From an uncultured Alphaproteobacteria bacterium (lineage in GTDB: Bacteria > Pseudomonadota > Alphaproteobacteria > HIMB59 > GCA-002718135), in assembly GCA_902522865.1 (NCBI GenBank), contig CABYXC010000003.1, positions 33,672 to 97,671 of the forward strand: a stretch of DNA of 64,000 nucleotides. The letters are read 5' to 3'. Positions 1 through 29,393 of the stretch are shown one piece after another; the first letter of the stretch is position 1; every line of letters starts with the position of its first letter. Below the pieces are notes generated by a model, which did not search any database, had not been told where the DNA came from, and saw nothing but the letters and a program-made list of their open reading frames with translations. The position numbers and the translations under genes were made by a program.

Positions 1-519
1 ATGGCTATGATGAATGAAAAGGGAGTTAGCAGTGCATGTGAAGCTGATGTATTAGGAAGTATAAGTTGTGATATTTTAAATAAGATAAATAACAGACCTT
101 CACTTTTAGTAGATGTTGTTGATTGTGATCCCAAAACTGATACTTTAGTTTTTTGGCACTGTGGATTAGCTCCAATTAGTATGGCAAAAAAAAATACAGC
201 AAGTGCAACTGTACATTCTAATAGAAGGAAAGCATTGCTATATGATTTTGCATTTAGACCTGGAAAAATAACAATATTTAGAGTTTCAAAATCTGAAAAT
301 AAATTAAAATTTATTGTTATTAAAGGTGAAGTTTTAGATAAAAAAAATTCATTTTCAGGTACTTCGGGTGTTGTGAGATTTCAAACAAATACCTATCAAA
401 AATTAGTTAGATTATTCACGTCTGGTATCGAACATCATCTAGCATTCACATATGGAGATGTATATTCAGAAATAAAAAAACTAAGTGCGCAATTAAATAT
501 TCCAATTTACACAATATGA
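1..519 (+). CDS. L-fucose/L-arabinose isomerase family protein, C-terminal fragment (5' end lies outside the window)
   Basis: The 172 aa are much shorter than this family. 'SSACEADVLGS' and 'VFWHCGLAP' resemble the FucI-like C-terminal domain. The stop overlaps the next start (ATGA). Confidence 0.5.
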   Translation: MAMMNEKGVSSACEADVLGSISCDILNKINNRPSLLVDVVDCDPKTDTLVFWHCGLAPISMAKKNTASATVHSNRRKALLYDFAFRPGKITIFRVSKSENKLKFIVIKGEVLDKKNSFSGTSGVVRFQTNTYQKLVRLFTSGIEHHLAFTYGDVYSEIKKLSAQLNIPIYTI

Positions 520-1604
520 AAATGAAAATTAAATATGGAATTGTTGGAAGTGGACTAATGGGTTGTGAACATATTTCAAATATTAATCTTATAGATTCAG
601 CTGAAGTAATTGCCGTCTCAGATAGTAATGAAAATTCAATAAATAAAGCTAAAAATCTTATCTCTAATGATATTAAAATCTATTCAAATGATAATGAAAT
701 TTTTAAAAATAATGAAGTTGATGCTTTTATTATTTCGACTCCCAATTTTACCCATCATGATATTATTAAAGAAGCATTAAAAACAAAAAAACATTTATTA
801 ATTGAAAAACCCTTATGTACAAAATTACAAGATTGTTTTGAAATTAAAAAATTATCAACTTCATATCCATCAGTAATATGGGTGGCTATGGAGTATAGGT
901 ACATGCCACCTGTTCAAAAAATGATCCAAGAAATAAATAGTAATAAAATTGGTAAGCTCAAAATGCTTTCAATTCGTGAACATAGATTTCCATTTCTCAA
1001 AAAAGTAGACGATTGGAATAGATTCCAAATAAACACCGGTGGAACATTAGTAGAAAAATGCTGTCATTTTTTTGATTTAATGCGCCTAATTACAAATAGT
1101 GAAGTTACACAAGTATATGCAAGTGGTGACCAAAGTGTAAATCATCTTAATGAAAATTATAATGGAAAAGTTCCTGATATATTGGACAATGCATTTGTAA
1201 TTTTAGATTTTAAAAATGGAATAAGAAGTTCTTTAGAACTTTGTATGTTTGCAGAAAATTCAGAAATGCAAGAAGAGCTATGTGTTGTTGGAGATAAGGG
1301 TAAAATAGAAACAGGTGTGCCAGCTGATGCATCTGGAAAAAACTCTTCAGAGGTTAGAATAGGTTTAAGAAACTCTAAAAATGCAATTAAAGAATTAGTT
1401 AAGGTAGATAAAAAAATTTTATCAGCGGGGCAGCATCATGGATCGACTTATTATCAACATTTAGAATTTATTAAAGCAATTAATAATAATTTAAAACCAC
1501 AAGTTTCTATAAACGATGGTCTTCATGCAGTGGCTATTGGAGAAGCAGCAGAGAAATCAATAAAAGAAAATCGTGTGGTTAAGATGAGTGAATTTAATCT
1601 TTAA
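516..1604 (+). CDS. Gfo/Idh/MocA family NAD(P)-dependent oxidoreductase
   Basis: N-terminal Rossmann motif 'KYGIVGSGLMG', an 'LIEKPL' motif, 362 aa. Confidence 0.8.
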   Translation: MKMKIKYGIVGSGLMGCEHISNINLIDSAEVIAVSDSNENSINKAKNLISNDIKIYSNDNEIFKNNEVDAFIISTPNFTHHDIIKEALKTKKHLLIEKPLCTKLQDCFEIKKLSTSYPSVIWVAMEYRYMPPVQKMIQEINSNKIGKLKMLSIREHRFPFLKKVDDWNRFQINTGGTLVEKCCHFFDLMRLITNSEVTQVYASGDQSVNHLNENYNGKVPDILDNAFVILDFKNGIRSSLELCMFAENSEMQEELCVVGDKGKIETGVPADASGKNSSEVRIGLRNSKNAIKELVKVDKKILSAGQHHGSTYYQHLEFIKAINNNLKPQVSINDGLHAVAIGEAAEKSIKENRVVKMSEFNL

Positions 1605-2529
1605 AATTTTCAAAAAATTTATTTGTTTTATCAATTATAAAATTACTTACTCTAACATTTGATTCAGCAGTTACACCTGCAATATGAGGTGTTAAGATGC
1701 AATTCATATCATTTGTAATATTGTTATAAAATGCTTCATTTACTGGTTCATTTTCAAAAACATCTAATGCGAAACCAGAGATATATTTATTTTTATAAGC
1801 ATCAATTAAGTCTTTCTCATTGATGATGCCACCCCTAGAAGAATTAATTATAATTGGTTGTTTTTTCATTTTAATAAAAGCTTGTCTGTCAAATAGATAC
1901 TTTGTTTCATTATTTAATGGGACATGAATAGAAATTATGTCGGCCAAATTAAGAATTTCATCAAATGAAACTTTCTTAACATTTTCTGCCTCCATTTGTT
2001 TCGAAGTTATAAAAGGATCATATGCAATACAGCTAACATCAAAAACATTTACAAGATTTAAAACTTTTTTTGAAATATCCCCAAAACCTATTAGACCAAG
2101 AGTCTTTCCTTTAAGTTCTTTTGTAACAATTGATGTCCTTGGCCATTTTCCTTGTAGAGTTTGTTCTTTAATAATGTGATTTTTTTTTAATAATGTAAGA
2201 GAAGAATTCACAACATATTCTGCAACAGAGTCAGAATTCATACCTGTTGCTGGCTGAACAATGATATTATTTTTTTTACAGTATTCTGTATCTATATTAT
2301 CAAGACCAACACCTAATCTTCCTATAAACTTTAAATTTGATGCATTTATTAAAATTTTCCTATCTAAACTTGTTTTATTCCTTACGATGATGCCATCAAA
2401 TTTCTGAATTTCTCTCTCTAAAAAATCTTTATTTTGCCAGGCATCTTTTTGATAAATTACATCAAATTTTTTATTTATATTTTGCAATGATTGTGAATCT
2501 ATAAATTCTGTAATTAAAATTTTTGTCAT
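1594..2529 (-). CDS. D-isomer-specific 2-hydroxyacid dehydrogenase (phosphoglycerate-dehydrogenase-like)
   Basis: 'GLIGFGDISK' NAD fold, 'NSSRGGIINE', catalytic-type 'TPHIAG'. Last gene of the long minus-strand operon. Confidence 0.8.
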   Translation of the reverse strand: MTKILITEFIDSQSLQNINKKFDVIYQKDAWQNKDFLEREIQKFDGIIVRNKTSLDRKILINASNLKFIGRLGVGLDNIDTEYCKKNNIIVQPATGMNSDSVAEYVVNSSLTLLKKNHIIKEQTLQGKWPRTSIVTKELKGKTLGLIGFGDISKKVLNLVNVFDVSCIAYDPFITSKQMEAENVKKVSFDEILNLADIISIHVPLNNETKYLFDRQAFIKMKKQPIIINSSRGGIINEKDLIDAYKNKYISGFALDVFENEPVNEAFYNNITNDMNCILTPHIAGVTAESNVRVSNFIIDKTNKFFENFKD

Positions 2530-3434
2530 TTAATTTTTCTAATTTTTAATTTTTTTAAAAACTTTTTTACGTTGTTTAAATTTGGTATTGAATATATGCC
2601 TCCAGCTTTCATGCATTTTAAAGTTGCAGTAGCTGCTGCCAATTGAATACTTTGAGAGTTTGATTTATTTAATGATAGAGCTGTTGCAAAAGCACCATGA
2701 AAAACATCTCCTGCACAATTCGTTTCAACTGTTTTTACTTTTGGAACATTACAATGATATAATGAGTTATTTTCAACCCAATAAACACCGTTTGATCCCA
2801 TAGTAACTGCAACAAATTTATTTGTTTCATTGAATATTTGAAAAAGAGCCTTTTGCATATTGATGTTTTTTTTATAAGTTTTCAAACCTTCTTCAGAAAA
2901 TATAGGGTGCGAAGCTTTGTGGACAATTTCAGAAATTTTATTAGAGTTTTTAAAATTATCTAGATCAGCAACACATTTAATATTTTTTTTATTGGTATTA
3001 ATAGCAATATAAGAGGCCATATCTATCCATCTCATATCTATTGAATAAATATCCTTTTTTTTAAAATTTATTTTGGGTATTTTCTTATAATCAAGTAATT
3101 TTGGATCATTGTATGCTGCTAGTAATCTTTCACCTTTTGTATCCTCAATTACAAAGCTTTGCGAAGACTGACATTTTTTAATAAAAATTGATTTACTAGT
3201 ATTAATAGAAAATTTTTTTAATTCATTTTTTAAAAAGTCTGATGAATCATCATCTCCAATTTTTCCTATGAATTTTGATTCAGAGCCCAAAATTTTTGCA
3301 GTAAATGCAGATACTGCTGCTGAACCACCTAATCTTTTATCAATACCTCTAGATAAAACTTTAATTGGTTTTTTTGGAAATTTATTAATCCTACTTATGT
3401 AATCTGTAAATATTGATCCTGCGCAAATGATCAT
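2526..3434 (-). CDS. PfkB-family carbohydrate kinase (ribokinase/sulfofructose-kinase-like fold)
   Basis: N-terminal 'RLGGSAAVSA', C-terminal 'TNCAGDVFHGAFA' (PfkB signature 2-like). 4-nt overlap with neighbours on both sides. Confidence 0.75.
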   Translation of the reverse strand: MIICAGSIFTDYISRINKFPKKPIKVLSRGIDKRLGGSAAVSAFTAKILGSESKFIGKIGDDDSSDFLKNELKKFSINTSKSIFIKKCQSSQSFVIEDTKGERLLAAYNDPKLLDYKKIPKINFKKKDIYSIDMRWIDMASYIAINTNKKNIKCVADLDNFKNSNKISEIVHKASHPIFSEEGLKTYKKNINMQKALFQIFNETNKFVAVTMGSNGVYWVENNSLYHCNVPKVKTVETNCAGDVFHGAFATALSLNKSNSQSIQLAAATATLKCMKAGGIYSIPNLNNVKKFLKKLKIRKIK

Positions 3435-3444
3435 AAAATATTAA

Positions 3445-4014
3445 TTAAAGGTATTTAACTTTACCAATAAACTTTCTAAACCTATCTCTTATAGTTATAG
3501 GATTGAGTGGAATGGGATCAGTTTTAACATTTCCAGAATTGATCTTTGAAATTATCACATATGAATTATCTTTATCATCAATGGCTTTGTTCAATTCATT
3601 AACTGTTTCCTCGCCAGAACATTCAACCACATTTTTGCAGCCAGCTCCTAATGCAACATCCTTCAAGCAAGTTTTCTCATCAGTAAATGTTCGTTGATCT
3701 CCTGTTGATCCATAAGAACCATTATCAATTATCAATAAAGTATAGTTTGATGGTGCTCTATTACCTATTGTTGCTAGAGTATTCATATTCATTAAAACTG
3801 ATCCATCACCATCTATACTAATAACGTGTTTATTTTGGGATAGTGCCAAGCCTAAGCCAATAGAAGATGATAAGCCCATACTGCCTAACATATAAAAAAA
3901 ATTTGGTTGATCACTAATTTTATATAATTCTTGAGATGGAAGACCTATATTACAAATAACTAAGTTATCTTTAAGAATATTTTGTACCTTATTTAATAAA
4001 TCAAAACGGTTCAT
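3445..4014 (-). CDS. comE: Sulfopyruvate decarboxylase beta-subunit-like protein (TPP-binding C-terminal module)
   Basis: 189 aa with TPP motif 'IDGDGSVLMNMN...IIDNGSYGSTG'. The split two-gene layout and sizes match ComD/ComE rather than fused phosphonopyruvate decarboxylase. Confidence 0.6.
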   Translation of the reverse strand: MNRFDLLNKVQNILKDNLVICNIGLPSQELYKISDQPNFFYMLGSMGLSSSIGLGLALSQNKHVISIDGDGSVLMNMNTLATIGNRAPSNYTLLIIDNGSYGSTGDQRTFTDEKTCLKDVALGAGCKNVVECSGEETVNELNKAIDDKDNSYVIISKINSGNVKTDPIPLNPITIRDRFRKFIGKVKYL

Positions 4015-4511
4015 TTATCATCTTTCATTAAATTGAAATCACATAAAATAGCTACTGGTGATTCAACAACTTTGCCATGTTTGCTAAATATTGAAATTTT
4101 ATCTAGTTCTTTTTCAGAAGAGCAATGCAACATAGGTATTCTCAACGTTTGTAAAATATCTTCAGTAATCTTCGCCATTCCACCTTGCGCTCCTACTGGC
4201 TCACCAGGTGTGCCCCTGTAACTAATTAAAAAAACAACAGGCATTTGATATAATTGTAATAGAGAAACAATTGCATTCACTGAATTTCCAATCCCTGTAT
4301 TCTGCATCATTATACACGGGAATTTATTTCCTAAATAAGCTCCAGCACAAATACCCATACCTTCTTCCTCTCTTGGTACAGCCGAATAATAAACATCTTT
4401 ATCATTTTCAAGAATATCAATCATGTTGGCTAATAACTTACAAGGAACACTTAAGTAAAAATCTACTCCACCTTTTTTTAAATTATCTATGATTTTTTTA
4501 CTAATTTTCAT
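4011..4511 (-). CDS. comD: Sulfopyruvate decarboxylase alpha-subunit-like protein (TPP pyrimidine-binding module)
   Basis: 166 aa with 'REEEGMGICAGAYLG' and 'MQNTGIGNSVNA'. Overlaps comE-like by 4 nt. Confidence 0.6.
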   Translation of the reverse strand: MKISKKIIDNLKKGGVDFYLSVPCKLLANMIDILENDKDVYYSAVPREEEGMGICAGAYLGNKFPCIMMQNTGIGNSVNAIVSLLQLYQMPVVFLISYRGTPGEPVGAQGGMAKITEDILQTLRIPMLHCSSEKELDKISIFSKHGKVVESPVAILCDFNLMKDDK

Positions 4512-4557
4512 TTATGCGGATGTCTATAGATATAAAATTATAAAACAATAAATTAAT

Positions 4558-5610
4558 TTATTTAAAATCATTTCTTAATTTTATTTTTGTATTTGAATTA
4601 TATGTTTCGCCTACTTTTAATATAGTTGATGGAAAATTTGGTTGATTAATAGCATCTGGAAAAATTTGCGTCTCTAGACACATACCATATTGTAATCCAT
4701 AATTTCGATTATGTTTGCCATGATATGAATCTTTCATCATATTACCAGTATAAAATTGTATTCCAGGTTGATCAGTCGAGTATTCAACTCCCATACCAGT
4801 AATATTACTGTAGATGGAAGCTATAGATTGATCAATAGAATGATCTTTGAGAACATAATTGTGATCAATACCACCGCCATCTAAAAAAGATTTATTTATT
4901 TCAAATGAATTATTAAGATCATATTTTGTATTAACTACATCGAATAGTTTACCAGTAGGAATTGATCCCTCATCAGTTTCGCAAATTTGATTAGATGATA
5001 TTCTTACAACATGGTCAGTAATATTTTTATAATTATCTTTATGGCCATGAAAATTCCAATAGTTATGATTAGTCATATTAACAATAGTATCTTGATCTGT
5101 AGTAGCATTAAAGGAAATTAGAATTTCGTTATTATTATTAAGTTCGTAAATAGTTTTACAATTTAGGTTGCCTGGATAATTTTCTTCTAAATGTTTAGAC
5201 TGGTAAGTGAGCTCTACTTTTATACTTTGGCTTGTTTTTTTAATATCAGCTATTTTCCAAATCTTTTTATTAAAACCTACCTCTCCACCATGAAGATGAT
5301 CAGGTTCAGTATTAGAATGTAAATTATATTCTTTCCCATTAAGAGTAAATTTACTTTGCCCTATTCTATTACAAACTCTTCCAATAATTGAATTGAAATA
5401 TCCATGAGCTTCCAGGCAATCATCTAAATTACCATAACCTAATAAAACATCCTCTGTTTCAGAGACATTCGAAGAAGTTGGAATACAAACTTCACTCATA
5501 TAACCACCATAAGTATAAAAACTAAAACTATAATTGTTTGAGTTAATAATATTAACTATGTCAATATCTAAACCTTTATCATTTTGAAGTTTGGTAATTT
5601 TATATTCCAT
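4558..5610 (-). CDS. Aldose 1-epimerase (mutarotase) family protein
   Basis: 'IGRVCNRIGQSKFTLNGKEYNL' and 'HLHGGEVGFNKKIW' match the GalM-type signature. Confidence 0.8.
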   Translation of the reverse strand: MEYKITKLQNDKGLDIDIVNIINSNNYSFSFYTYGGYMSEVCIPTSSNVSETEDVLLGYGNLDDCLEAHGYFNSIIGRVCNRIGQSKFTLNGKEYNLHSNTEPDHLHGGEVGFNKKIWKIADIKKTSQSIKVELTYQSKHLEENYPGNLNCKTIYELNNNNEILISFNATTDQDTIVNMTNHNYWNFHGHKDNYKNITDHVVRISSNQICETDEGSIPTGKLFDVVNTKYDLNNSFEINKSFLDGGGIDHNYVLKDHSIDQSIASIYSNITGMGVEYSTDQPGIQFYTGNMMKDSYHGKHNRNYGLQYGMCLETQIFPDAINQPNFPSTILKVGETYNSNTKIKLRNDFK

Positions 5611-6509
5611 TATGTTTTCCTTAATCTTTGAAAATTATTTTTTCTTTGTTGAAGATAAATGATTAATCCACCTAAAACTATGAAAAAAGCACCTGGGAAA
5701 AGTTGATCAACTGGCCATTCTGCAAAGAATATCCAACCTAAAATAAGTGCAAAAAATATCTCGATATAATCAAAAGGCATAATTTTACTAAGTTCTGCTT
5801 TTCTAGCACCATATATTAAAAGTAAAGTTCCAGATCCTCCTGCAATCCCCATGACACAAACTACTAAGAAATCATTTATACTTTTGAAATTTTCCCACAT
5901 ACCAAAAAATACCACTAACATACATGCAACTATGATTGTCCCTGTTTGACCATACAAGTTGATAAGTGGTGAAGGAACATGATCCTCAAAACTTAAGGAT
6001 GTTACTCTTGCTAATGAATATCCAAAAGCAGCAAGTATAGGAAGTAATAACATATAATTAAAATCTGATGACCAAGGTTGCATAATTAAAACGATCCCTA
6101 CAAAACCAGAAATTACTGCACTCATTTTGTACCAACCAAATTTTTCACCTAATAAAGGAATAGCAAGAAGGGTGACCATCATTGGCCCAGTGTATTCCAT
6201 GGTAGCGACTAAAGCAAAAGGTAAGTAAGCATAAGAAGTATAGAGACATAATTGAGCCAATGCTACAAATACTCCGCGGAATAATCCTAACTTCCATTGC
6301 GTTATTTTTATTTGTCTACCATTTCGATGCCAATCATGTGAAAAATATAAAGCAATAACACAAGGGATCATTCCAAATAAATTTCTAAAAACAGAAAGTT
6401 GAGCTGCTGGATATTCGTTTCGTAAAAACTTTATCGCAATCCCCATACAATCCAATAAAAACAAACCTGAAAGTGATAATAAAACAGCTAAAAATAAATT
6501 ATTTTTCAT
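5610..6509 (-). CDS. DMT superfamily (EamA-like) transporter
   Basis: About 10 hydrophobic segments in 299 aa. 1-nt overlap with the epimerase gene. Confidence 0.7.
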   Translation of the reverse strand: MKNNLFLAVLLSLSGLFLLDCMGIAIKFLRNEYPAAQLSVFRNLFGMIPCVIALYFSHDWHRNGRQIKITQWKLGLFRGVFVALAQLCLYTSYAYLPFALVATMEYTGPMMVTLLAIPLLGEKFGWYKMSAVISGFVGIVLIMQPWSSDFNYMLLLPILAAFGYSLARVTSLSFEDHVPSPLINLYGQTGTIIVACMLVVFFGMWENFKSINDFLVVCVMGIAGGSGTLLLIYGARKAELSKIMPFDYIEIFFALILGWIFFAEWPVDQLFPGAFFIVLGGLIIYLQQRKNNFQRLRKT

Positions 6510-6519
6510 TAATCATAAT

Positions 6520-7581
6520 CTATTGTTCTAAAATAATTTCTTTTCCTACTTCTTGACTTTTATAAATTCCATCTAAAATTTTCATTACTTGTAGAGAGTG
6601 TTCAGCCGGAATAGCAACTGGTTGATCATTTGCAACAAACTCTGCAAACTCGATACATTCTTTGGCATGAGGTTCAATAGTGTCTTTTAAATTTCCTTCA
6701 ATTTTTTTAGTTATATGAGTTTGAGAAATGATATCATTTTTTATAATCTCACAATTAGGCCAATGCAAACCAGCTTCTCTTCCGTATAACCATACCTGCA
6801 TATCTTCTATTTTATCTTCTGGTAGTTTATGATGAAGCATCCATGATACTTCAAGCATCAAGGTTGCACCATTTTTAAACCTAACAAACGCAGCTGCAAA
6901 ATCTTCAACGTTCATTGCTTCCTTATCGTACTCTCCATTGTAACTGAAAGAATTTGGCTGCTTTGCTAATTCTGTTTTTGACACACCCGTCACAGAAAGT
7001 GGTTCTGGATTGTTCATAAACCAAAGAGTTAAATCTAATACGTGCACCCCTATATCAATACAAGGCCCTCCTCCTGAATTTTCTTTTTTTAAAAAACCAA
7101 GTGAGACTGGTAAAAAATTTCTTCTAAGCATCCAAGAACGTGCATGATATATCGAACCAATTGATATGGATTGATCTTTTATTAATTGAGAATCTTTTCT
7201 GAATCTAAAGTGTTGAGCACACATTAATTTTTTTTTCGTTTGATCTCTTACTTCAATCATTTTTTTTATTTGTGAGGCATTTGGAGCTAAGGGTTTTTCA
7301 CATAAAACATCTTTGCCTGCTTGCATTGCTTTAATTGCTAAATCACAATGATAGTTATTAGGCGCACAAATATCTATTACATCTATATCTGGATCATTAA
7401 TCATGTCTAAGGGATCAAGATATAATTTTTTTATTTGATTTGTATTACCCCAATCTTCGAGAGTTGATTTGTTTATATCAGAGCCTGCTATTAATTCAGC
7501 ATGTTCTGACATGCGCCAACCAGGTACATGTAACTTCGCAATACCCCCGACTCCGATAATGCCAACTTTTATTTTACTCAT
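6520..7581 (-). CDS. Gfo/Idh/MocA family oxidoreductase
   Basis: 'KVGIIGVGGIAK' Rossmann motif, 'LCEKPL' motif, 353 aa. Confidence 0.8.
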   Translation of the reverse strand: MSKIKVGIIGVGGIAKLHVPGWRMSEHAELIAGSDINKSTLEDWGNTNQIKKLYLDPLDMINDPDIDVIDICAPNNYHCDLAIKAMQAGKDVLCEKPLAPNASQIKKMIEVRDQTKKKLMCAQHFRFRKDSQLIKDQSISIGSIYHARSWMLRRNFLPVSLGFLKKENSGGGPCIDIGVHVLDLTLWFMNNPEPLSVTGVSKTELAKQPNSFSYNGEYDKEAMNVEDFAAAFVRFKNGATLMLEVSWMLHHKLPEDKIEDMQVWLYGREAGLHWPNCEIIKNDIISQTHITKKIEGNLKDTIEPHAKECIEFAEFVANDQPVAIPAEHSLQVMKILDGIYKSQEVGKEIILEQ

Positions 7582-7597
7582 ATTTATATTTTTAAAT

Positions 7598-8587
7598 TTA
7601 GATATTTATCCATTTTTTTTCTTTTTCTGATTGGTAAATTGATTTCATTATACTACTTCTCAATGCTGCTTCTGAAGGAGTAACTAGGTTTTTAGTATTG
7701 TTATCAATTAATGAATTGAGAAACAAATCAAATGCATGTGGTAATGTTTCTGGTAAATTTTCTTCTATTCTTTCTATTTTTTTACCTTCCTTATTTTCAT
7801 TTATAATTAATTGCTCATTCGTTGTTCTTGCGTGAGCTTTTGTGCCACTTACAAAAATAGTGTATGGCTGAGCTATATCTATCCATCCCGCAGCAATACT
7901 AGCTATCAACCCACTTTTAAATTTTATTAATGCTTCTCCACTCTCTTCACAGTCTGGATATTGATTATATACTTTTGTAAAGGTTGCACTAACTGACTCA
8001 ACATCAGAAAAAAACCATAAAAGAAGATCTAAAACATGTGTTCCTAAATCACCGAAAGCTCCAACTCCAGCAACTTTGGGATCTGTCATCCATTGATATT
8101 TTTTGAAAATATCCCTCATAATACCATCGTGACAATTAACGAGTCGAATTCTTGAAATTTCGCCAAAATAATTAGTAGTAATTAGTTCTTTAAGTTTTAT
8201 GTAAACAGGATTGCTTCTCATGAAATATCCAGTTTGAAAAATTATATTTGAAGACTCAATAAGATTTGCCATTTCAAAAGAATCTTTTTTTCCTATCCCC
8301 AAAGGTTTTTCTATAAAACAGTGTTTTTTATTCTCGGTAATCTTTTTAACTAATTCATAGTGCAAATTAGTTTCTGAACATACAATAACACCATCTAAAT
8401 TAGGTTCTTTCAATAAATCAAGATAGTTATCATAATTCTTACATTGCAGTTTTTCAGAATCACTTTTTGACCTGTTCTTGTCTTTGTCCCAAACACCAAT
8501 GCAATTAATTTGATTGTTTGAAATTACGTTAGCAATAAAATTTGGCGTATGAATATGTGAGGTTCCAATAAATGCGATATTTTTCAT
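7598..8587 (-). CDS. Gfo/Idh/MocA family oxidoreductase
   Basis: 'IAFIGTSHIH' N-terminus, 'FIEKPL' motif, 329 aa. Confidence 0.75.
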   Translation of the reverse strand: MKNIAFIGTSHIHTPNFIANVISNNQINCIGVWDKDKNRSKSDSEKLQCKNYDNYLDLLKEPNLDGVIVCSETNLHYELVKKITENKKHCFIEKPLGIGKKDSFEMANLIESSNIIFQTGYFMRSNPVYIKLKELITTNYFGEISRIRLVNCHDGIMRDIFKKYQWMTDPKVAGVGAFGDLGTHVLDLLLWFFSDVESVSATFTKVYNQYPDCEESGEALIKFKSGLIASIAAGWIDIAQPYTIFVSGTKAHARTTNEQLIINENKEGKKIERIEENLPETLPHAFDLFLNSLIDNNTKNLVTPSEAALRSSIMKSIYQSEKEKKWINI

Positions 8588-8605
8588 TCCGATTATTAAA
8601 ACTAC

Positions 8606-9592
8606 TTATAGAGCACAACACTGATCGACCCAATGACCTGGTTCAACTTCAGTAAGCCCCATTTTTATTTCTCCACCTTTGCAATCTATTCCGGGATTAG
8701 GACATCTAGTTCTAAACACACAACCTGGAGGTGGATTTAATGCGCTAGGAATTTCTCCTTTTAGCTCTATAGCTTGAGATCTCTTTTCTGGATCAATTGA
8801 TGGAATAGAAGATAATAATGCTTTTGTATAAGAATGTTTAGGGTTCTTAAATAATTGTCTAGAGGGTCCCATTTCAACTATATGACCCAAATACATAACT
8901 GCAACGACATCACATACATGCGCTACTACACTTAAATCATGACTTATGAATAAGTAAGTAAGGTTTAGTTCAGTTTGAAGTTGTTTTAAAAGATTTAATA
9001 TATCTGCTTGTATTGATACATCTAAAGCAGCAACACTTTCATCTGCTACAATAAATTTTGGATTACTTACTAAGGCTCTTGCAATTGATATCCTTTGCCT
9101 TTGTCCTCCAGAAAATGCATGAGGAAACCTTCTAAGATGTTCAATATTTAATCTACATTTAGCTGCTATATCTCTTACTCTTTCATCAGTCTCTTGTCTT
9201 GAATTTGTTATTTTCATAACTTCTAAAGGTTCTGCTATAATATCTCTAACTGTCATTCTTGGGCTTAAAGCAGCATAAGGATCTTGAAAGATTAGTTGGG
9301 CTTTTTTTCTATATTCTTTTAAATCTTGTTTGTTCATATTTGTTAGATCATAATCTCTTTCATTATCATGAAAAATAACATTTCCTGAGCTAATTTTGTT
9401 AGCTCCAAGTATTGCCCTGCCAAGAGTAGTTTTTCCTGAACCAGACTCACCTACTAAACCAAAAAAAGATCCTTTTTGAATTTTGATATTAATATTGTTT
9501 ACAGCATGTATTTTTTGTTTTTTTGAAATAAAATTCTCTTGATAATCAAAATTTACAGAAACATTATTTACTGAAATTAAATTATTATCCAT
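8606..9592 (-). CDS. Dpp/Opp-type ABC transporter ATP-binding protein (DppF/OppF-like)
   Basis: Walker A 'GESGSGKTT', signature 'FSGGQRQR', Walker B 'FIVADES', C-terminal oligopeptide-transporter domain. I moved the start to the internal Met ('MDNNLISV') at 9592. The track ORF start at 9646 would overlap the upstream ATPase by 62 nt. Confidence 0.85.
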   Translation of the reverse strand: MDNNLISVNNVSVNFDYQENFISKKQKIHAVNNINIKIQKGSFFGLVGESGSGKTTLGRAILGANKISSGNVIFHDNERDYDLTNMNKQDLKEYRKKAQLIFQDPYAALSPRMTVRDIIAEPLEVMKITNSRQETDERVRDIAAKCRLNIEHLRRFPHAFSGGQRQRISIARALVSNPKFIVADESVAALDVSIQADILNLLKQLQTELNLTYLFISHDLSVVAHVCDVVAVMYLGHIVEMGPSRQLFKNPKHSYTKALLSSIPSIDPEKRSQAIELKGEIPSALNPPPGCVFRTRCPNPGIDCKGGEIKMGLTEVEPGHWVDQCCAL

Positions 9593-10574
9593 TTTGACCA
9601 CACTTAATTCCACACTGATCAACCCAGTGACCTGGTTCAACTTCAATTAATTTCATTTCAATTTTACCATCTTTACCCTCTGGATTGTGATGAGGGCATC
9701 TAGTTCTAAACACACAGCCTGTAGGTCTATCTAATGGACTTGGAATATTTCCAGGTATTGGGGATAATGGTGCATCTAAGTTATTTATATCAGGCAAGGC
9801 TTGCAATAAACCTTTTGTATAAGGATGTTTGGGATTTTTAAGAATCTCATTTACTGGACCTTTTTCTACTACACTCCCTAAATACATTACTGCTACATGA
9901 TCAGCTACCTGGGCAATAACACCTAGATCATGAGTAATAAATATTACTCCCATTTGATATTCTTTTATAATATCTTTAATTAAGTTAATTACCTGAGCTT
10001 GAATTGTAACGTCTAAGGCAGTTGTTGGCTCATCTGCCAATAAAAGTTTTGGCATAGTTGAAAGCGCCATAGCTATCATCGCTCTTTGACGCATTCCTCC
10101 AGATAATTCAAATGCATATTGATTAAACCGTTTTTCTGCATCTGCAATACCTACTCTTTTAAGCATATTTATAGATATAGATTTTGCTTCATCTTTATTA
10201 ATATTTTTATGTATTAGTAATTGCTCAACCATTTGCGCACCAATTTTTATAGCTGGAGCAAAACTTGCCATAGGCTCTTGAAAAATCATTGATACTTTTC
10301 CACCTCTAATTTTTTTTAAGTCTTGTTTAGAAGTAAATTGAAGAACATTTTCGTTATCTAATATTATTTCTGCATCTTCATTATAAGAGGTGTTACCTGG
10401 GTTTAATTTCATAATTGATTTAGCTGTCACAGATTTACCTGATCCAGATTCACCAACTATACCTAGTACTTCACCTTGATCTACAGAAAGTGAAATGTTT
10501 TCAACTGCTGTAATTCTACCTTCATCAGTATCAAATTTTACATCTAAGTTTTTTACTTCTAATAAATGACTCAT
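9585..10574 (-). CDS. Dpp/Opp-type ABC transporter ATP-binding protein (DppD/OppD-like)
   Basis: Walker A 'GESGSGKS', signature 'LSGGMRQR', Walker B 'LLLADEP'. Confidence 0.85.
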   Translation of the reverse strand: MSHLLEVKNLDVKFDTDEGRITAVENISLSVDQGEVLGIVGESGSGKSVTAKSIMKLNPGNTSYNEDAEIILDNENVLQFTSKQDLKKIRGGKVSMIFQEPMASFAPAIKIGAQMVEQLLIHKNINKDEAKSISINMLKRVGIADAEKRFNQYAFELSGGMRQRAMIAMALSTMPKLLLADEPTTALDVTIQAQVINLIKDIIKEYQMGVIFITHDLGVIAQVADHVAVMYLGSVVEKGPVNEILKNPKHPYTKGLLQALPDINNLDAPLSPIPGNIPSPLDRPTGCVFRTRCPHHNPEGKDGKIEMKLIEVEPGHWVDQCGIKCGQNG

Positions 10575-10575
10575 A

Positions 10576-11736
10576 TTATTTTACCTTATGAGGATCTGCT
10601 GCATCACGTAACCCATCCCCTACATAAACAAATGTTAAAATTAATACGACTAAGAAAAATACAGGTATAAAATACCATTGATAGTTTAAAAGTACGTCAG
10701 CCTTTGTTGCATTTTGCAAAAGTACACCTAAAGAGTTTACGGGTTCTCTTAAACCAAGTCCAATAAAACTTAAAGCCGTTTCAGATAATAACATATATGG
10801 AAAACTAATGACTAAATCGACAATAATGTAGCTAGTGAAACTTGGTAATAAATGTCTTAAAATAATGTGAGTAGAAGATGCTCCACAAAGTTTAGCAGCA
10901 AGAATATATTCTTGGCTTCTTTCGCTAAGTAGATGTGTTCTTACTCTTCTAGCAAGTGTTGGCCATGAAATTAATCCAAGTAAACAAGATATAAAAAAGA
11001 AACGTAATTCAGAACTCCATTCTAATGGTGCAAAAGCAGCAAGACACATAAAGAGAGGTATTGGTGGAACCGTTCGAATTGCATCAGTAAACATTTGAAG
11101 TACACTATCAATCCAACCACCATAATAACCTGAAATTCCTCCAATAATTAGCGATAGTACAAATGATATAAAAACACCAAGTGTACCTACAGCTAGCGAA
11201 ATATAAATTGCACTTAACGTTCTACTAAATAAATCTTTTCCTGCTTTATCTGTTCCAAATATGTGAATTCCACCCTCTTCGACGCCAAATAAATGGGTAT
11301 TAAATGTAAAACCTGGAATTTTAAAATCTAAAATTTTACCTGGAAGATTTATATTAAAATCAAAAATTTTATATTCCCAACCTTCGACAAAAAAATAAAC
11401 GTATCTTCTTTTTTCTGTATCAACTTTATACACCCATCTGAAATTTGTATCTGCTCCTCTATACTTTTCTAATGTGTGTAAAAACGGCCTAGCAGAAAAT
11501 CCATTATCATCCCAAAACATTGGAATTTGAGGTGCTCCATTTTCATAATCTTTATCTCTTCCTTTAATTGTTGGATCATAAGGTGATAGAAAATCTGCAA
11601 AGAGACTACAAATAATCATAAACAATAAAATAGAGCCAGCAATCATAGCTGATCTATTTCCGAAGAAGCGTGTTCTTACTAACTGCATTTGTGTTGCAGT
11701 ATAATAAGCCTCTTTTTTTTGATTACTAACCTCCAC
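10576..11736 (-). CDS. Dpp/Opp-type ABC transporter permease (DppC/OppC-like)
   Basis: Multi-pass membrane protein with a BPD-transport EAA-like loop ('ILAAKLCGASSTHIILRHLLP'). Confidence 0.8.
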   Translation of the reverse strand: MEVSNQKKEAYYTATQMQLVRTRFFGNRSAMIAGSILLFMIICSLFADFLSPYDPTIKGRDKDYENGAPQIPMFWDDNGFSARPFLHTLEKYRGADTNFRWVYKVDTEKRRYVYFFVEGWEYKIFDFNINLPGKILDFKIPGFTFNTHLFGVEEGGIHIFGTDKAGKDLFSRTLSAIYISLAVGTLGVFISFVLSLIIGGISGYYGGWIDSVLQMFTDAIRTVPPIPLFMCLAAFAPLEWSSELRFFFISCLLGLISWPTLARRVRTHLLSERSQEYILAAKLCGASSTHIILRHLLPSFTSYIIVDLVISFPYMLLSETALSFIGLGLREPVNSLGVLLQNATKADVLLNYQWYFIPVFFLVVLILTFVYVGDGLRDAADPHKVK

Positions 11737-12739
11737 CCATAACTCCTTTTCTTATTCTTGGATCAATTATAGCTAAAATAATGTCAGTTATAAAATTAAC
11801 AAAAACAATTGTTGCTGTTAAAAGAAAAATAATTGCACCTGCTAATTGCTGATCATTTGACCTTGCTAAAGCTTCAATCAATAATGCACCAGCTTCGGTA
11901 AGAATTAAAATTAAGGCCACAATCGGTAATGCACTAAATATTCGATTAAGGTCAAAACCTATAGAATTGATAACTGGACCTAAAGAATGTTTTGCAGGAT
12001 ATCTCCACAATAAACTCATTCCAGATATTCCTCTAGCTCTTGCAGCCATTACATATAATTTATCATTTTCATCTAACATTAGCGCTCTAACTGTCTGAAG
12101 AGCAAAGGCAGTGGCATTCCAACCTAAAACAAAAATGGGGAGCCAAGCTCTGCTTAAAAAATCAAATAATTTTGCTGATGACCATGGTTCGTTTTCATAT
12201 TCTTGAGAGAATAAACCTGTCATTGTATCCCCATAATAAACAGTCATAAAAAGCATAATACAGAGTGCTACTAAAAAGTTGGGGAGAGCTATTCCAAGAT
12301 AACTAATAAATTTAAGGGTATTATCTAAAGAAGCATATTTTGTCGTGGCCGATATAATCCCAACTGGTATGGCTATTAAATATGAAAATATTAGTGCAAC
12401 CAAACATATTGTTAGAGATAAAGTAAATCTTCCACTTAATAATTCATTAATATTCATTCTTAAAATACAACTGTCACCAAAATCTCCATTAAAAACTATA
12501 TTAGAAACCCATTTGCCATATCTATACAAAAAAGGTTTATCTAAACCTAAACGAATTTTTTCTTTTTCTATGTCTTCATAAGTTATTTGTGATCCTTGTG
12601 TATTTTTAAATGCTAGATATCTTTCAGCACAAGTTCCAGGAACTAATTCCATTAATGAAAAAACAATAAAGCATACAAGAAGCAAAGTTATAATTGCAAG
12701 TCCTGCTCTTGTGAGAGTAAATTGTATAAAATTAATCAT
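11726..12739 (-). CDS. Dpp/Opp-type ABC transporter permease (DppB/OppB-like)
   Basis: Multi-pass membrane protein with 'YVMAARARGISGMSLLWRYPAKH' EAA loop and C-terminal 'DPRIR'. Confidence 0.8.
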   Translation of the reverse strand: MINFIQFTLTRAGLAIITLLLVCFIVFSLMELVPGTCAERYLAFKNTQGSQITYEDIEKEKIRLGLDKPFLYRYGKWVSNIVFNGDFGDSCILRMNINELLSGRFTLSLTICLVALIFSYLIAIPVGIISATTKYASLDNTLKFISYLGIALPNFLVALCIMLFMTVYYGDTMTGLFSQEYENEPWSSAKLFDFLSRAWLPIFVLGWNATAFALQTVRALMLDENDKLYVMAARARGISGMSLLWRYPAKHSLGPVINSIGFDLNRIFSALPIVALILILTEAGALLIEALARSNDQQLAGAIIFLLTATIVFVNFITDIILAIIDPRIRKGVMGGG

Positions 12740-12767
12740 ATAAAATAATTAGGAGACAAGGATAATT

Positions 12768-12800
12768 AAAAAAAGAAAAGCGGCAATATATAATTGCCGC
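12768..12800 (-). terminator. Intra-operon rho-independent terminator/attenuator after the binding-protein gene
   Basis: GCGGCAAT(12780-12787)/ATTGCCGC(12793-12800) stem with a 5-nt loop. On the minus strand it is followed by a U-rich tract (plus-strand A-run 12768-12779). A T7 run at 12801-12807 makes it formally bidirectional. Confidence 0.65.
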
Positions 12801-12825
12801 TTTTTTTATTATTTATTGAGTTAAA

Positions 12826-14880
12826 TTACTCGTCTAACCACCATTGAGTAGCTAGGTATGGGTATGTTCTATAATACTCATACGAAGTAGTTTTAAACTG
12901 CGTAAAGTTTTTCAAAGCATTTCTATGATAAGTTGGGAAAGGTGCTTTCACCGTACCAATCAATAGACTTTGCTCTGTTAACATTGTTGCAATTTTTTCA
13001 CCCCACTCATTAGACTCAGCAGTACCAAGAGCGTAAGATTGGAATTTATCAATTCCATCACTTAAGTCATATACCCACTGAGGAGGTTTAGTACCTTCGT
13101 CACCATTACTATCAATGTATGCTGCCCAATCTAAACCTTGTGTATGGTTAAAGTAGTTACCAAACGGAGGTTTAAATGTTTCTGGGTTACCAGCAACAAT
13201 TGCTAATGGTTGACCTTTATCCCAAACATGAACGTCAAGTTGGTTAGCAGCTTGCGAACCACGATATTCATCTGGAGTTACCTCTTTAAAAGTAGTTTTT
13301 ACTCCTACTTCATTGAAGTATCTTGCAACAAGTTCAACTTCAACACCACCAATACCTTGAGTAGCATAGTCAATGTTAATAGCTAGAGCATCACCATTTG
13401 GTAATTCTCTAAATCCATCACCATCAACGTCTTTTAATCCTACTTCATCAAGAAGAGCATTTGCTCCATCTGGATCGTATTGAGTCATATGCATTTTTAT
13501 ACTTTCAGGGACGAAGTCAGGTGCAGGAGAAAATCCTACAAACTGCTCAACTTTACCTAAACCGTAATATGCAACTTCGTTGATCTCGTCTCTATTCATA
13601 GCAATTGACATTGCTTGACGGAAACGAATATCCCCATAGACTTTACGTTTTTCAGGATCAGGATGTGTTACATTAAAACTAAATAATGCAGCACCACAAC
13701 CTGGATTGATTTGAACTTGATATCCACCAGACTCAGCACCATCAAGTAATTGAGGAGCGGACTCTAATTGAACAGACTGTGATTTATAATCAACTTCACC
13801 ATTAACAAGTTTTAACAATCTTATTTCATTTTCATTGATGTATCTTTCATTTTGATAATCAATGTATGGTAATTGATTTCCAGCTGTATCAACTTGGAAA
13901 AAGTATGGGTTAGCTGCATAGACTCTACCTTCAGTAGTATCTTCAATAGTCATGTAAGCTTCTAAAGAAGGATAAGCTGCATAAGGTAATCCAGCAACTA
14001 GATCTGGTTTAGCTAGTAAAGGAGTTGGAGTATCAGTCCAACCTGAGTTACCATAATATGCTGCTAAAGCATCATAACCATCTGCAAATCCTAATGCCTG
14101 AGCATTTGCATCAGCATTTGAATCAATTTCCGGATGGAATTGTTCTAGGAAATGTGAAGGCATGAAGAACTGGTTATATGACCATGCAATAGTTGCAGTT
14201 AAACCAGGGAACGGAGATGGTAAGTTAAATCTTACTGTTTGATCATCAATTACATCAACAGTCATTGGCTCACCACCAACTAAAAGATATGGATATGGTT
14301 TTTCACGAATCTTTGGATTCATCATCAAATCTTCGTACCAAAACTCAACATCTCTAGCTACAAAAGGTTCACCATTTGACCACTTGTGACCTTTACGTAA
14401 CATGAATGTTAAAGTAGTAAAATCATCATTCCACTCATAATCTTTAGCAACGTTTGGAACAATTGTAGTTAAGTCATCAGCAAAACGTAATAAGTTTACG
14501 TGTCTTGTAGATAGCATATCAGAAGTTCCAGCTTCAGTTGCATTCGATAAGAAGTTTATTGTATTTCCATATTTACCAATAGACTCATATGGTACTACAA
14601 CAAGTGGCTCATCAGGTAATCTATCCTCAACTGGAGGTAGACTTCCTGGGTTACCTTGTATTGTAGCGTTTATGCTAGCAATATTTGGATTATCTGAAAA
14701 CTTCATAGTACAGCCGGCTGCACTTTCATATTCTGATAACTCATATTGCTGAGGATATTTTCCGCCTGTCTGTGCATCGTTCATTGTTGTACCTACGCAA
14801 TGACCACCTGCAAAAGAGCTTCCACTCCAGACAAAGGTTGCGGAAGAAAATACTAACGCTATGAATAGTTTTTTTAACAT
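12826..14880 (-). CDS. ABC transporter substrate-binding protein, family 5 (peptide/oligosaccharide/opine type), secreted
   Basis: 684 aa with an N-terminal signal peptide ('MLKKLFIALVFSSATFVWSGSSFA'). First gene of the operon; codon usage looks like a highly expressed gene. Confidence 0.8.
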   Translation of the reverse strand: MLKKLFIALVFSSATFVWSGSSFAGGHCVGTTMNDAQTGGKYPQQYELSEYESAAGCTMKFSDNPNIASINATIQGNPGSLPPVEDRLPDEPLVVVPYESIGKYGNTINFLSNATEAGTSDMLSTRHVNLLRFADDLTTIVPNVAKDYEWNDDFTTLTFMLRKGHKWSNGEPFVARDVEFWYEDLMMNPKIREKPYPYLLVGGEPMTVDVIDDQTVRFNLPSPFPGLTATIAWSYNQFFMPSHFLEQFHPEIDSNADANAQALGFADGYDALAAYYGNSGWTDTPTPLLAKPDLVAGLPYAAYPSLEAYMTIEDTTEGRVYAANPYFFQVDTAGNQLPYIDYQNERYINENEIRLLKLVNGEVDYKSQSVQLESAPQLLDGAESGGYQVQINPGCGAALFSFNVTHPDPEKRKVYGDIRFRQAMSIAMNRDEINEVAYYGLGKVEQFVGFSPAPDFVPESIKMHMTQYDPDGANALLDEVGLKDVDGDGFRELPNGDALAINIDYATQGIGGVEVELVARYFNEVGVKTTFKEVTPDEYRGSQAANQLDVHVWDKGQPLAIVAGNPETFKPPFGNYFNHTQGLDWAAYIDSNGDEGTKPPQWVYDLSDGIDKFQSYALGTAESNEWGEKIATMLTEQSLLIGTVKAPFPTYHRNALKNFTQFKTTSYEYYRTYPYLATQWWLDE

Positions 14881-16567: not shown

Positions 16568-16574
16568 TAAAGAT

Positions 16575-20076: not shown

Positions 20077-20126
20077 CTTTTTTCTTATTAAAGATTGAGT
20101 ATATGAAATTATCGATAAATCAAAGA

Positions 20127-20152
20127 ATATTTCTTACACAATAAAGAAATAT
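20127..20152. promoter_or_regulatory. Inverted repeat ATATTTCTT-N8-AAGAAATAT in the aminotransferase/pta divergent region
   Basis: 9-bp perfect arms read directly, centred in the 118-bp intergenic region 20077-20194. Confidence 0.3.
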
Positions 20153-20194
20153 CATAGGAAAAATTGTAGCAGTGGTATAGAGAGAATACCAAAT

Positions 20195-21094: not shown

Positions 21095-21117
21095 TTAGTA
21101 AATAAATTTTAGCTCGA

Positions 21118-22750: not shown

Positions 22751-22763
22751 TTGATCTGATTAT

Positions 22764-23423: not shown

Positions 23424-23441
23424 AAGATTAGAAATTTATTA

Positions 23442-24323: not shown

Positions 24324-24324
24324 A

Positions 24325-25353: not shown

Positions 25354-25365
25354 CTATTTCTTACT

Positions 25366-25397: not shown

Positions 25398-25419
25398 TTA
25401 TCATAAATATTTATACGGT

Positions 25420-26655: not shown

Positions 26656-26677
26656 ATATTTCCCCTTATTAATAAAG

Positions 26678-29391: not shown

Positions 29392-29393
29392 TT

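Follow-up and report, generated by a model that had tools for sequence, protein, structure and literature searches.

A probable sulfoquinovose utilisation island with a sulfopyruvate decarboxylase-like gene pair in marine HIMB59 bacteria

Introduction

What does a bacterium gain from an operon that joins a Dpp/Opp-type importer and sugar-type enzymes to a gene pair resembling a split sulfopyruvate decarboxylase? The operon in question comprises 13 genes on the minus strand, from position 14880 down to 1594, of a 64,000-nucleotide stretch of DNA (hereafter the window; positions 33,672 to 97,671 of contig CABYXC010000003.1, GenBank assembly GCA_902522865.1) from an uncultured alphaproteobacterium. 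An original prediction, made from the window's letters, favoured a variant route for a sulfonated or sulfated sugar or glycoside over the import of peptides. Sulfoquinovose (SQ) is a plant and algal sulfo-sugar. We consider it likely that the operon is the larger part of an SQ utilisation island, with a convergent sftI-sqgA gene pair as the remainder, and that the two would encode a tandem pathway.

The HIMB59 group, which is AEGEAN-169 and was formerly SAR11 subclade V, consists of abundant streamlined ocean bacteria. The G+C content of the window is about 30%, and its sqgA gene is 96-97% identical to those of the single-cell genomes AG-893-M20, AG-422-N03 and AG-892-J17, which are classed as o__HIMB59; f__GCA-002718135; g__AG-337-I02 (supplement of PMC10734472).

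Results

Arrangement of the locus

The listing of open reading frames (ORFs) agreed with the prediction in giving 13 co-oriented minus-strand ORFs from 14880 down to 1594, with no gap above 86 nt. At most junctions the neighbouring ORFs overlap by 1-11 nt or stand 1-46 nt apart; the two exceptions are a 62-nt overlap, produced by the mechanically listed TTG start of the ORF at 8606-9646, and an 86-nt gap 3' of the binding-protein gene. Pfam searches returned the gene order that had been proposed: SBP_bac_5 (684 aa), two BPD_transp_1 permeases and two ABC_tran+oligo_HPY ATPases, followed by two GFO_IDH_MocA proteins, EamA and Aldose_epim, and then by TPP_enzyme_N (166 aa), TPP_enzyme_C (189 aa), PfkB and 2-Hacid_dh. 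The two genes said to converge on the operon, a FucI_C fragment (1-519) and a third Gfo/Idh/MocA gene (516-1604), are also present. The arrangement is not chance, because it is repeated in more than 15 independent related contigs (related loci are designated L followed by a number).

The convergent SqgA homologue and SftI-type isomerase

The key to the locus is the gene at 516-1604 (plus strand), which encodes a homologue of the GH188 NAD+-dependent sulfoquinovosidase SqgA. Over residues 4-357 its product matched the Protein Data Bank (PDB) entries 8QC2 (E=1.7e-106), 8QC3 (1.2e-104) and 8ZN9 (4.6e-96), and the next match after the SqgA entries reached just 4e-30. These are, in turn, FlSqgA, ArSqgA and RdSqgA, the NAD+-dependent sulfoquinovosidases on which GH188 was founded (PMC10755693, PMC12780224). 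The catalytic and SQ-binding residues of RdSqgA are K98, Y127, R156, L160, K162, E179 and H183 (PMC12780224). Compared with this published list rather than by alignment with the RdSqgA sequence, the window protein has K98, Y127, R157, L161, K163, E180 and H184, with identical spacing, and all seven are invariant in 80 aligned homologues. Its identity to non-marine homologues is about 45-50%; for the characterised GH188 members the same 45-50% is an estimate and not a computed value.

A Gfo/Idh/MocA protein acting as an NAD-dependent glycosidase had been suggested from the sequence. GH188 homology and the catalytic residues bear this out for 516-1604, which stands outside the operon; the idea does not extend to the two Gfo genes inside the operon, which are a clade-variable insertion (see below). 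The prediction that no classical glycosidase is present also held, none being found among the annotated ORFs in a scan of ORFs of about 180 aa or more.

Overlapping sqgA is the 3' end (172 codons) of a predicted SftI-type sulfoquinovose isomerase gene (1-519, plus strand; Pfam Fucose_iso_C). The whole gene encodes 457 aa in near-identical contigs from single-cell genomes, with a full-length orthologue at L009:8631-10004 (97-100% identical). The sole NCBIfam match of the orthologue was NF048012 (SftI), with 282 bits over the full length. A YihS-type isomerase is not supported, since tblastn gave no match, and a PDB sequence search with the isomerase returned no homologue.

Kinase, dehydrogenase, mutarotase and EamA transporter

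The PfkB protein (2526-3434, minus strand) is a predicted sulfofructose kinase of the YihV type. Its best PDB match was the E. coli sulfofructose kinase YihV (7AG6, E=6.5e-48), followed by a match at 7e-28 and by ribokinases at about 1e-17. Aligned with YihV from the E. coli genome, the kinase is 36% identical and keeps D13, K27, S95, R138 and the catalytic D244. The sulfonate triad of YihV is K27-N109-R138 (PMC8006165).

The terminal gene of the operon (1594-2529, minus strand; Pfam 2-Hacid_dh) encodes a phosphoglycerate dehydrogenase (PGDH)-like protein that we regard as a candidate SlcC-type (S)-sulfolactate dehydrogenase. Its best PDB match was the short type-IIIH PGDH 1wwk (2.3e-50). Characterised SlcC falls in or beside the SERA/PGDH clade and does not take 3-phosphoglycerate as a substrate (PMC6303947); the placement of the window protein follows this published family position and not a direct alignment with C. 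salexigens SlcC. Homologues of the gene adjoin SqgA in HIMB59, Pelagibacteraceae and Pseudothioglobus, and they lie beside SuyB-like and ComC-like genes in the SqgA loci of Rhizobiales. Family and context thus suggest that the enzyme would convert sulfolactate to sulfopyruvate, because the family joins SQ genes with ComC/SuyAB in Rhizobiales and with ComDE/Xsc in HIMB59. These two different downstream partners are the strongest contextual argument for the SlcC role.

The aldose 1-epimerase (4558-5610, minus strand; Pfam Aldose_epim, 2.8e-69), a proposed SQ mutarotase, is of the GalM type: it scored 257 bits with galM_Leloir and just 4e-07 with the PRK15172 model, taken here as YihR-type, and tblastn with E. 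coli YihR had no match in any locus. The gene always adjoins comD in relatives. The original prediction had seen in the mutarotase and the kinase the enzyme logic of known SQ glycolysis; the kinase half of this survives as YihV-type, whereas the mutarotase is not of the YihR type. Next to it is the EamA/DMT membrane transporter gene (5610-6509, minus strand; Pfam EamA), which in all related loci keeps its place with the ABC genes on one side and the mutarotase gene on the other; its product may export sulfite or a sulfonate.

The ComDE pair and the sulfoacetaldehyde node

The split thiamine diphosphate-dependent pair is predicted to be sulfopyruvate decarboxylase, both subunits scoring above their profile cut-offs. 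ComD, the alpha subunit (4011-4511, minus strand, 166 aa), scored 157.0 bits with TIGR03845 (equivalog cut-off 147.95), and ComE, the beta subunit (3445-4014, minus strand, 189 aa), passed narrowly with 221.9 bits for TIGR03846 (cut-off 221.5). On the phosphonopyruvate decarboxylase model TIGR03297 (cut-off 312.5) ComE scored 133.7 bits and ComD 96.9 bits. The sulfopyruvate models therefore outscore the phosphonopyruvate model by 60-88 bits, and the cut-off of the latter is missed by about 180-215 bits, which bears out the identity first proposed for the pair; the judgement uses profile scores rather than a tree with reference phosphonopyruvate decarboxylases. ComE contains the GDG...N thiamine-diphosphate motif. 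An exact-match look-up of the window ComE found nothing, and the clusters of ComE and of the binding protein have hundreds to thousands of metagenomic members. The context of ComDE comprises the SlcC-type dehydrogenase in the same operon and Xsc and Pta in the window.

Xsc, the sulfoacetaldehyde acetyltransferase, is encoded at 40302-42071 (minus strand), where it had been predicted, and scored 954.6 bits with TIGR03457 (cut-off 676.4). Genes for an alanine dehydrogenase, a class-III aminotransferase and a Pta-like phosphotransacylase lie at 17621-21094, with Pta divergent, and provide the sulfoacetaldehyde node with an entry from taurine and an exit by way of acetyl-phosphate. The gene at 34751-36070 (plus strand) encodes HpsN, by its PDB matches a sulfopropanediol (DHPS) 3-dehydrogenase; the product matched the sulfopropanediol 3-dehydrogenase 8V35 at 1e-118 and the best histidinol dehydrogenase at 3.3e-76, and a housekeeping HisD was rejected on this far stronger HpsN match. 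From about 42 kb on the window genes are housekeeping, and the stretch before that, beginning at position 1, makes up a sulfonate island with sulfoacetaldehyde at its centre.

The family-5 importer

The first five genes of the operon encode a family-5 (cluster C) solute-binding protein (12826-14880, minus strand; SBP_bac_5, 684 aa), two Dpp/Opp-type permeases (10576-12739, minus strand; BPD_transp_1, OppC_N) and two Dpp/Opp-type ABC ATPases (8606-10574, minus strand; ABC_tran + oligo_HPY). In HIMB59 this system is the constant transporter beside the SQ genes, and its permeases are 90-99% identical across HIMB59 loci. The top PDB match of the binding protein was Thermotoga maritima OppA 5IPW (ligand unknown) at 8e-73. 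Among sugar binders it matched SPH1118 (pectin/galacturonate) at 4e-60, an alpha-galactoside binder at 1.6e-28 and a chitobiose binder at 7e-27, as against 1e-11 to 1e-6 for the peptide binders DppA/OppA. In SPH1118, Arg57 contacts galacturonate at its C6 carboxylate and MES at its sulfonate. Because SPH1118 grips both groups by this residue, a C6-sulfonated hexose is by analogy a plausible ligand of the window protein, and SQ or sulfoquinovosyl glycerol would be the candidate. All matches returned by a homologue search with the binding protein were at least 82% identical. Uptake of pectin or uronates, suggested by the likeness to SPH1118 and by a UxuA gene beside comE in some related loci (L002-type), was rejected: UxuA is convergent there and absent from the window, and the operon has no other uronate genes.

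The 86-nt gap behind the binding-protein gene holds a hairpin with a T-tail (12776-12804, minus strand; 12-bp stem with five G-C pairs), a possible attenuator. Such a gap is the usual site of partial termination. Because of this strong hairpin and its run of T's in the gap, the binding-protein gene may be in part uncoupled from the rest of the operon. An Rfam search of the window matched no riboswitch or other RNA regulator, and a promoter scan of the window was uninformative, since shuffled sequence gave at least as many hits.

Upstream of window position 1, a near-identical contig carries a divergent CUT1 operon (L009 902-8495) with genes for SBP_bac_1, two permeases, a second 2-hydroxyacid dehydrogenase, MalK and two more Gfo/Idh/MocA proteins; L089 (1-9753) additionally encodes a protein of 402 aa, a xylose-isomerase-like TIM barrel and a further Gfo protein. 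The gene set of the CUT1 operon resembles 3-keto-glycoside pathways. The CUT1 module beside sftI occurs in two unrelated versions, and in other HIMB59 genomes an unrelated module (SBP1, FGE and a 607-aa protein) is found at the CUT1 site. The upstream CUT1 binding protein was considered as a homologue of SmoF and dismissed, since it matched no SQ-binding protein in the PDB and its best match (E 5e-08) was to generic sugar binders.

Related loci within HIMB59

A layout in which SftI-SqgA converges on SlcC, sulfofructose kinase, ComE, ComD, mutarotase, EamA and the ABC genes recurs in HIMB59 contigs, and the window's own arrangement is repeated in L008, L010, L023 and L027. The original prediction would have been undermined by orthologous operons lacking the decarboxylase; the ComDE linkage is conserved in the HIMB59 relatives.

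A sister clade (including L012, L089 and L092-L094) is about 55% identical to the window in kinase and SlcC, and 84-98% identical in ComD and permeases. Immediately upstream of sftI it carries a gene for a 339-aa DeoC/LacD-family (YihT-type) aldolase, which in L012, L089 and L092 keeps the YihT Schiff-base K193 and the S226, S227 and R253 pocket. Because this aldolase precedes sftI, the sister clade is predicted to encode all core steps of a sulfo-Embden-Meyerhof-Parnas (sulfo-EMP) route, together with SqgA, mutarotase, SlcC and ComDE, in a single locus. In the window's clade the site upstream of sftI is directly occupied by the divergent CUT1 sugar importer operon.

The window's clade, which has no dedicated sulfofructose-1-phosphate (SFP) aldolase at the locus, has gained a pair of oxidoreductase genes. 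One encodes a DgpA-like Gfo/Idh/MocA protein of the glycoside 3-oxidoreductase type (6520-7581, minus strand; PDB matches DgpA1 at 9.9e-53 and DgpA at 1e-49); the other (7598-8587, minus strand) has its best PDB matches at about 1e-16 and no close characterised relative in the PDB. The two share one pattern of presence and absence. Since they are missing from five loci (L012, L013, L034, L089 and L092) that keep the rest of the operon, the pair is an optional, clade-variable accessory insertion. C-glycoside cleavage by the DgpA-like protein was set aside, as the window has no DgpB/C-type TIM-barrel partner and the pair is dispensable in sister loci. So was inositol catabolism: the weak IolG and IolC matches were outscored by DgpA, SqgA and YihV, and IolD, IolE and IolB were not found in the window.

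A third type of locus (L002-L007) has the importer, EamA, mutarotase and ComDE genes together with a divergent sulfatase gene; in L002-type loci a UxuA dehydratase gene adjoins comE.

Predicted pathway and alternative readings

In the pathway that we propose, SQ or sulfoquinovosyl glycerol would be imported by the family-5 ABC system. SqgA, by homology and its catalytic residues, would cleave the glycoside through NAD+-dependent transient oxidation at C3, and the GalM-type mutarotase would equilibrate the anomers. The SftI-type isomerase would turn SQ into sulfofructose (homology, under the equivalog cut-off) and the YihV-type kinase would phosphorylate this to sulfofructose-1-phosphate. An aldolase, for which the sister clade has a YihT-type gene and the locus of the window's clade none that was found, would yield dihydroxyacetone phosphate (DHAP) and (S)-sulfolactaldehyde, which a dehydrogenase with no assigned gene would oxidise to (S)-sulfolactate. 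From there the SlcC-type dehydrogenase may produce sulfopyruvate, ComDE would decarboxylate it to sulfoacetaldehyde, and Xsc and Pta, both encoded in the window, would give acetyl-phosphate plus sulfite and then acetyl-CoA; EamA may export the sulfite or a sulfonate. If true, the tandem would recover three sugar carbons as DHAP and two as acetyl-CoA, five of six in all, with the sixth lost as CO2.

Several points weigh against this reconstruction, whose support is sequence comparison throughout. At the position of N109 in the YihV sulfonate triad the kinase has Ala, with an Asn two positions later. The SftI match of 282 bits is well under the equivalog cut-off of 700, and ComE clears its own cut-off by 0.4 bit. 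The only PDB relative of ComE (2e-22) is labelled putative phosphonopyruvate decarboxylase beta subunit; this label has little weight because the PDB matches included no ComE-labelled chain. As predicted for aldolases, tblastn over the 64 kb had no match to a YihT-type, class-I fructose-bisphosphate or HpcH aldolase, and it found no aldehyde dehydrogenase and no YihU homologue there; the window also has no transaldolase-like candidate. Nor did near-identical contigs show an SFP aldolase, a transaldolase-like candidate or an aldehyde dehydrogenase in the 10 kb upstream. An aldolase homologue search for the window's clade recovered just the sister clade's position upstream of sftI, and a housekeeping or class-II aldolase elsewhere in the genome is possible. 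HpsN is the sole candidate for sulfolactaldehyde oxidation and is reported to be R-specific, whereas SQ gives the S-form. Finally, the CUT1-type importer divergent from sftI could be the real SQ importer, and the L002-L007 loci have no SQ gene within 10 kb and a binding protein just 64% identical to that of the window.

These last points lead to the alternative that two functions have been joined by neighbourhood. The core (family-5 importer, EamA, mutarotase, ComDE and sulfatase) would then serve another anionic or sulfated sugar or a sulfonate, while the SQ genes (sftI, sqgA, kinase and SlcC) would be separate and served by CUT1. The L002-L007 loci, which hold the core and sulfatase within 10 kb of no SQ gene, fit this, as does a binding protein that differs so much there while the permeases stay 90-95% identical. 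Between HIMB59 clades the SQ-side genes are 54-66% identical and ComD and permeases 84-98%, and this greater divergence suggests separate histories. HIMB59, Pseudothioglobus and Rhizobiales all have a CUT1 importer in divergent orientation to their SQ genes, and sulfatase and FGE genes recur in the island. Yet in the window the kinase and SlcC genes are packed tightly in one transcription unit with ComDE and the importer, and ComDE requires the sulfopyruvate that SlcC would supply. The CUT1 module varies between two types, whereas the family-5 system is constant, and no SQ-binding protein in the PDB is detectably similar to that of the CUT1 system. We regard two separate functions as unlikely.

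It is improbable, in our view, that the ComDE-like pair acts on another 2-oxoacid, such as phosphonopyruvate, 3-phosphohydroxypyruvate from the PGDH-like enzyme, or a 2-keto-3-deoxy-sulfosugar acid. The slim pass of ComE, the annotation of its best PDB relative, the PGDH-like character of the neighbouring dehydrogenase and the UxuA dehydratase adjoining comE in L002-type loci would suit such a role. Both subunits nevertheless scored 60-88 bits better on the sulfopyruvate models, no phosphoenolpyruvate mutase was seen among the annotated genes of the window or of the related loci, and Xsc, Pta, HpsN and the taurine genes of the window point to a sulfoacetaldehyde hub.

That an ordinary di/oligopeptide importer lies by chance beside unrelated sugar or inositol genes, as the public annotation of the binding protein (peptide/nickel transport) and the weak IolG matches of both internal Gfo proteins might suggest, is highly improbable and was already doubted at the outset: no peptide binder matched better than 1e-11, as against a sugar binder at 4e-60, the spaces separating transporter from enzyme genes measure 10-18 nt, the arrangement is kept in more than 15 loci, and IolD-, IolE- and IolB-type genes were not found in the window.

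The tandem SQ pathway thus stands as the likely reading. With respect to the prediction of a sulfonated or sulfated sugar, the sulfonated part is upheld in the form of SQ, whereas the sole hint of a sulfated sugar is the conserved neighbouring sulfatase.

Related loci outside HIMB59

Candidatus Pseudothioglobus aerophilus has the gene order DeoR-aldolase-SftI-SqgA-kinase-SlcC. In Rhizobiales (L061 11685-16014 and L077 9516-14250; Aliihoeflea sp. and a Hyphomicrobiales metagenome-assembled genome) a kinase-aldolase-SftI-SqgA (YihV-YihT-SftI-SqgA) operon is followed downstream by genes for a GntR regulator, an altronate-dehydratase-family protein of the SuyB type, an SlcC-like dehydrogenase 38-39% identical to that of the window, and an Ldh_2 protein of the ComC type. 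The SuyB/SlcC/ComC trio is the known sulfolactate racemase/lyase route, which in Paracoccus wurundjeri has been shown to act in tandem with the cleavage of sulfofucose (PMC12421959). The Rhizobiales loci would accordingly be a sulfo-EMP plus sulfolactate-lyase tandem, and for SQ we did not find such a tandem described in the literature searched.

Canonical SAR11 (Pelagibacteraceae), including cultured strains, has an SqgA homologue that is 62-65% identical to the window protein and keeps all catalytic residues (L014-L031, SqgA at about 9995-11077; L026 is Candidatus Pelagibacter sp. HIMB1495 and L031 Candidatus P. ubique HTCC8051). Its gene converges on an SlcC-like gene and is preceded by genes for a tripartite ATP-independent periplasmic (TRAP) transporter and a 587-aa di-haem CCP_MauG protein. 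After this sqgA gene come genes for PhyH and 2-oxoglutarate-Fe(II) oxygenases, ApbA, DUF1907 and a PanB-like protein, as well as for an aldolase (HpcH), an aldehyde dehydrogenase and a thiamine diphosphate enzyme of 614 aa. This SAR11 locus fits no described SQ pathway.

Other genes of the island

Divergent from the binding-protein gene lies a gene for a PehA-like Cys-type sulfatase with a CGPSR motif (15032-16567, plus strand; Pfam Sulfatase; NF045661 410.8 bits, cut-off 900), of which L002 has an 86% identical copy in the same orientation. In the stretch 15032-17624 the sulfatase is followed by a second protein consisting of a MetE catalytic domain only. On the island's other side, L034 and L090-L094 again have sulfatase and FGE genes. 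A second EamA transporter is encoded in the stretch 17621-21975, next to the alanine dehydrogenase, aminotransferase and Pta genes. A third sugar-type ABC locus (21983-27782) comprises genes for an SDR, a HAD hydrolase, a pair of permeases and SBP_bac_1; a LacI regulator gene is divergent from these, and the locus itself includes no ATPase gene. Directly upstream of hpsN, the stretch 28200-34748 encodes four SnoaL-like-domain proteins of 330-379 aa, a cupin (32588-33559) and a MetE-catalytic-domain-only protein (30452-31579). Converging on xsc is a choline-dehydrogenase-like GMC oxidoreductase gene (38697-40301, plus strand; 572 bits, cut-off 605), whose product might be an IseJ-type isethionate dehydrogenase feeding sulfoacetaldehyde.

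Discussion

The modules of the proposed pathway, namely GH188, sulfo-EMP, SlcC, ComDE and Xsc, are each of a known kind. In the literature searched, their combination appears to be undescribed, and so do the host group and the candidate binding protein. There, SQ gene clusters are not discussed with sulfopyruvate decarboxylase, the two terms co-occurring just in a gut-microbiota study, and the HIMB59/AEGEAN-169 papers yielded no mention of sulfonates or SQ. An AEGEAN-169 study lists "raffinose/stachyose/melibiose" ABC transporters along with galKMT, names that automatic annotation may have given to loci of the present kind. The marine literature searched names Alteromonadaceae and Roseobacteraceae as SQ consumers and Pelagibacter as a secondary user of small sulfonates (PMC12780224, PMC13436972), never mentioning SAR11 or HIMB59 as degraders. 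An ocean survey set its threshold at 54% identity to an SqgA from Roseobacter (PMC12780224), and the estimated 45-50% identity of the window protein to the characterised members is probably under that value. This filter probably excludes the HIMB59 and SAR11 proteins, because no Roseobacter locus is among the best 80 relatives of the window SqgA, which reach down to 44% identity.

The sea is estimated to produce SQ compounds amounting to about 1.5 Pg C per year (PMC13436972). We suggest, tentatively and with more doubt than belief, that HIMB59/AEGEAN-169, together with Pelagibacteraceae through their own SqgA loci, may be a large unrecognised oceanic sink for SQ glycosides; that they would use an undescribed tandem of sulfo-EMP followed by SlcC, ComDE and Xsc, with the first family-5 (cluster C) SQ-binding ABC importer; and that in the window's clade the C-C bond may be cleaved by an enzyme new to sulfoglycolysis. 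If SQ glycosides are broken down fully to acetyl-CoA and sulfite inside one HIMB59 cell, estimates of open-ocean SQ removal, and of DHPS or sulfolactate release for cross-feeding, would need revising. The "raffinose/melibiose transporter" and "galM" labels of AEGEAN-169 would probably need reinterpreting, if the same locus is meant. The locus supplies candidates for a new family of SQ-binding proteins and for the step from sulfolactaldehyde to sulfolactate.

Among known systems, FlSqgA, ArSqgA and RdSqgA share with the window SqgA the predicted fold, the same seven residues and a place in an SQ cluster without a GH31 enzyme. The window protein has a HIMB59 host, theirs being Roseobacteraceae, Arthrobacter or Flavobacterium. 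SPH1118 of Sphingomonas sp. A1 and the window binding protein are both large cluster-C/family-5 proteins of the carbohydrate-binding branch (E=4e-60). SPH1118 recognises a hexopyranose with an anionic C6 as well as the MES sulfonate; the likeness is one of overall sequence, not of ligand contacts, and the gene context in the window is that of a sulfosugar, not of pectin.

A 2026 review assigns sulfo-EMP to Gammaproteobacteria and Actinobacteria, with DHPS or sulfolactate excreted as end products. The sulfo-EMP systems of E. coli (YihQRSTUV) and of Arthrobacter (with SqgA and SlaB) have in common with the predicted HIMB59 pathway glycoside cleavage, mutarotation, isomerisation to sulfofructose and YihV-type phosphorylation, and with the sister clade also YihT-type cleavage to DHAP and sulfolactaldehyde. 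As in Arthrobacter, GH188 SqgA takes the place of the GH31 enzyme YihQ. The HIMB59 isomerase is predicted to be of the SftI type and not YihS, its mutarotase is of the GalM type and not YihR, the proposed importer is a family-5 ABC system, the window has neither a YihU reductase nor a SlaB dehydrogenase, and an aldolase is missing from the locus of the window's clade. The C3 sulfonate would be processed further in HIMB59 rather than excreted.

The lower part of the proposed pathway resembles that of Roseovarius nubinhibens ISM, which, according to work of Denger and colleagues from 2009, reportedly converts sulfolactate to sulfopyruvate, then by ComDE to sulfoacetaldehyde and by Xsc to acetyl-phosphate and sulfite, with Pta following. 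Free external sulfolactate is said to be the substrate there, with SlcD as the dehydrogenase and no sulfosugar genes attached. The counterpart for the coupling itself is P. wurundjeri (mBio 2025, PMC12421959), since both it and the proposed HIMB59 route join sulfosugar cleavage to C3-sulfonate mineralisation in one organism. The common route would run through S-sulfolactaldehyde, S-sulfolactate, SlcC and sulfopyruvate, and the sulfolactaldehyde dehydrogenase was left unassigned in P. wurundjeri too (PMC12421959). P. wurundjeri uses an Entner-Doudoroff-type upper route on sulfofucose and proceeds by ComC and SuyAB to sulfite and pyruvate, whereas HIMB59 would use an EMP-type upper route on SQ, with decarboxylation by ComDE and desulfonation by Xsc.

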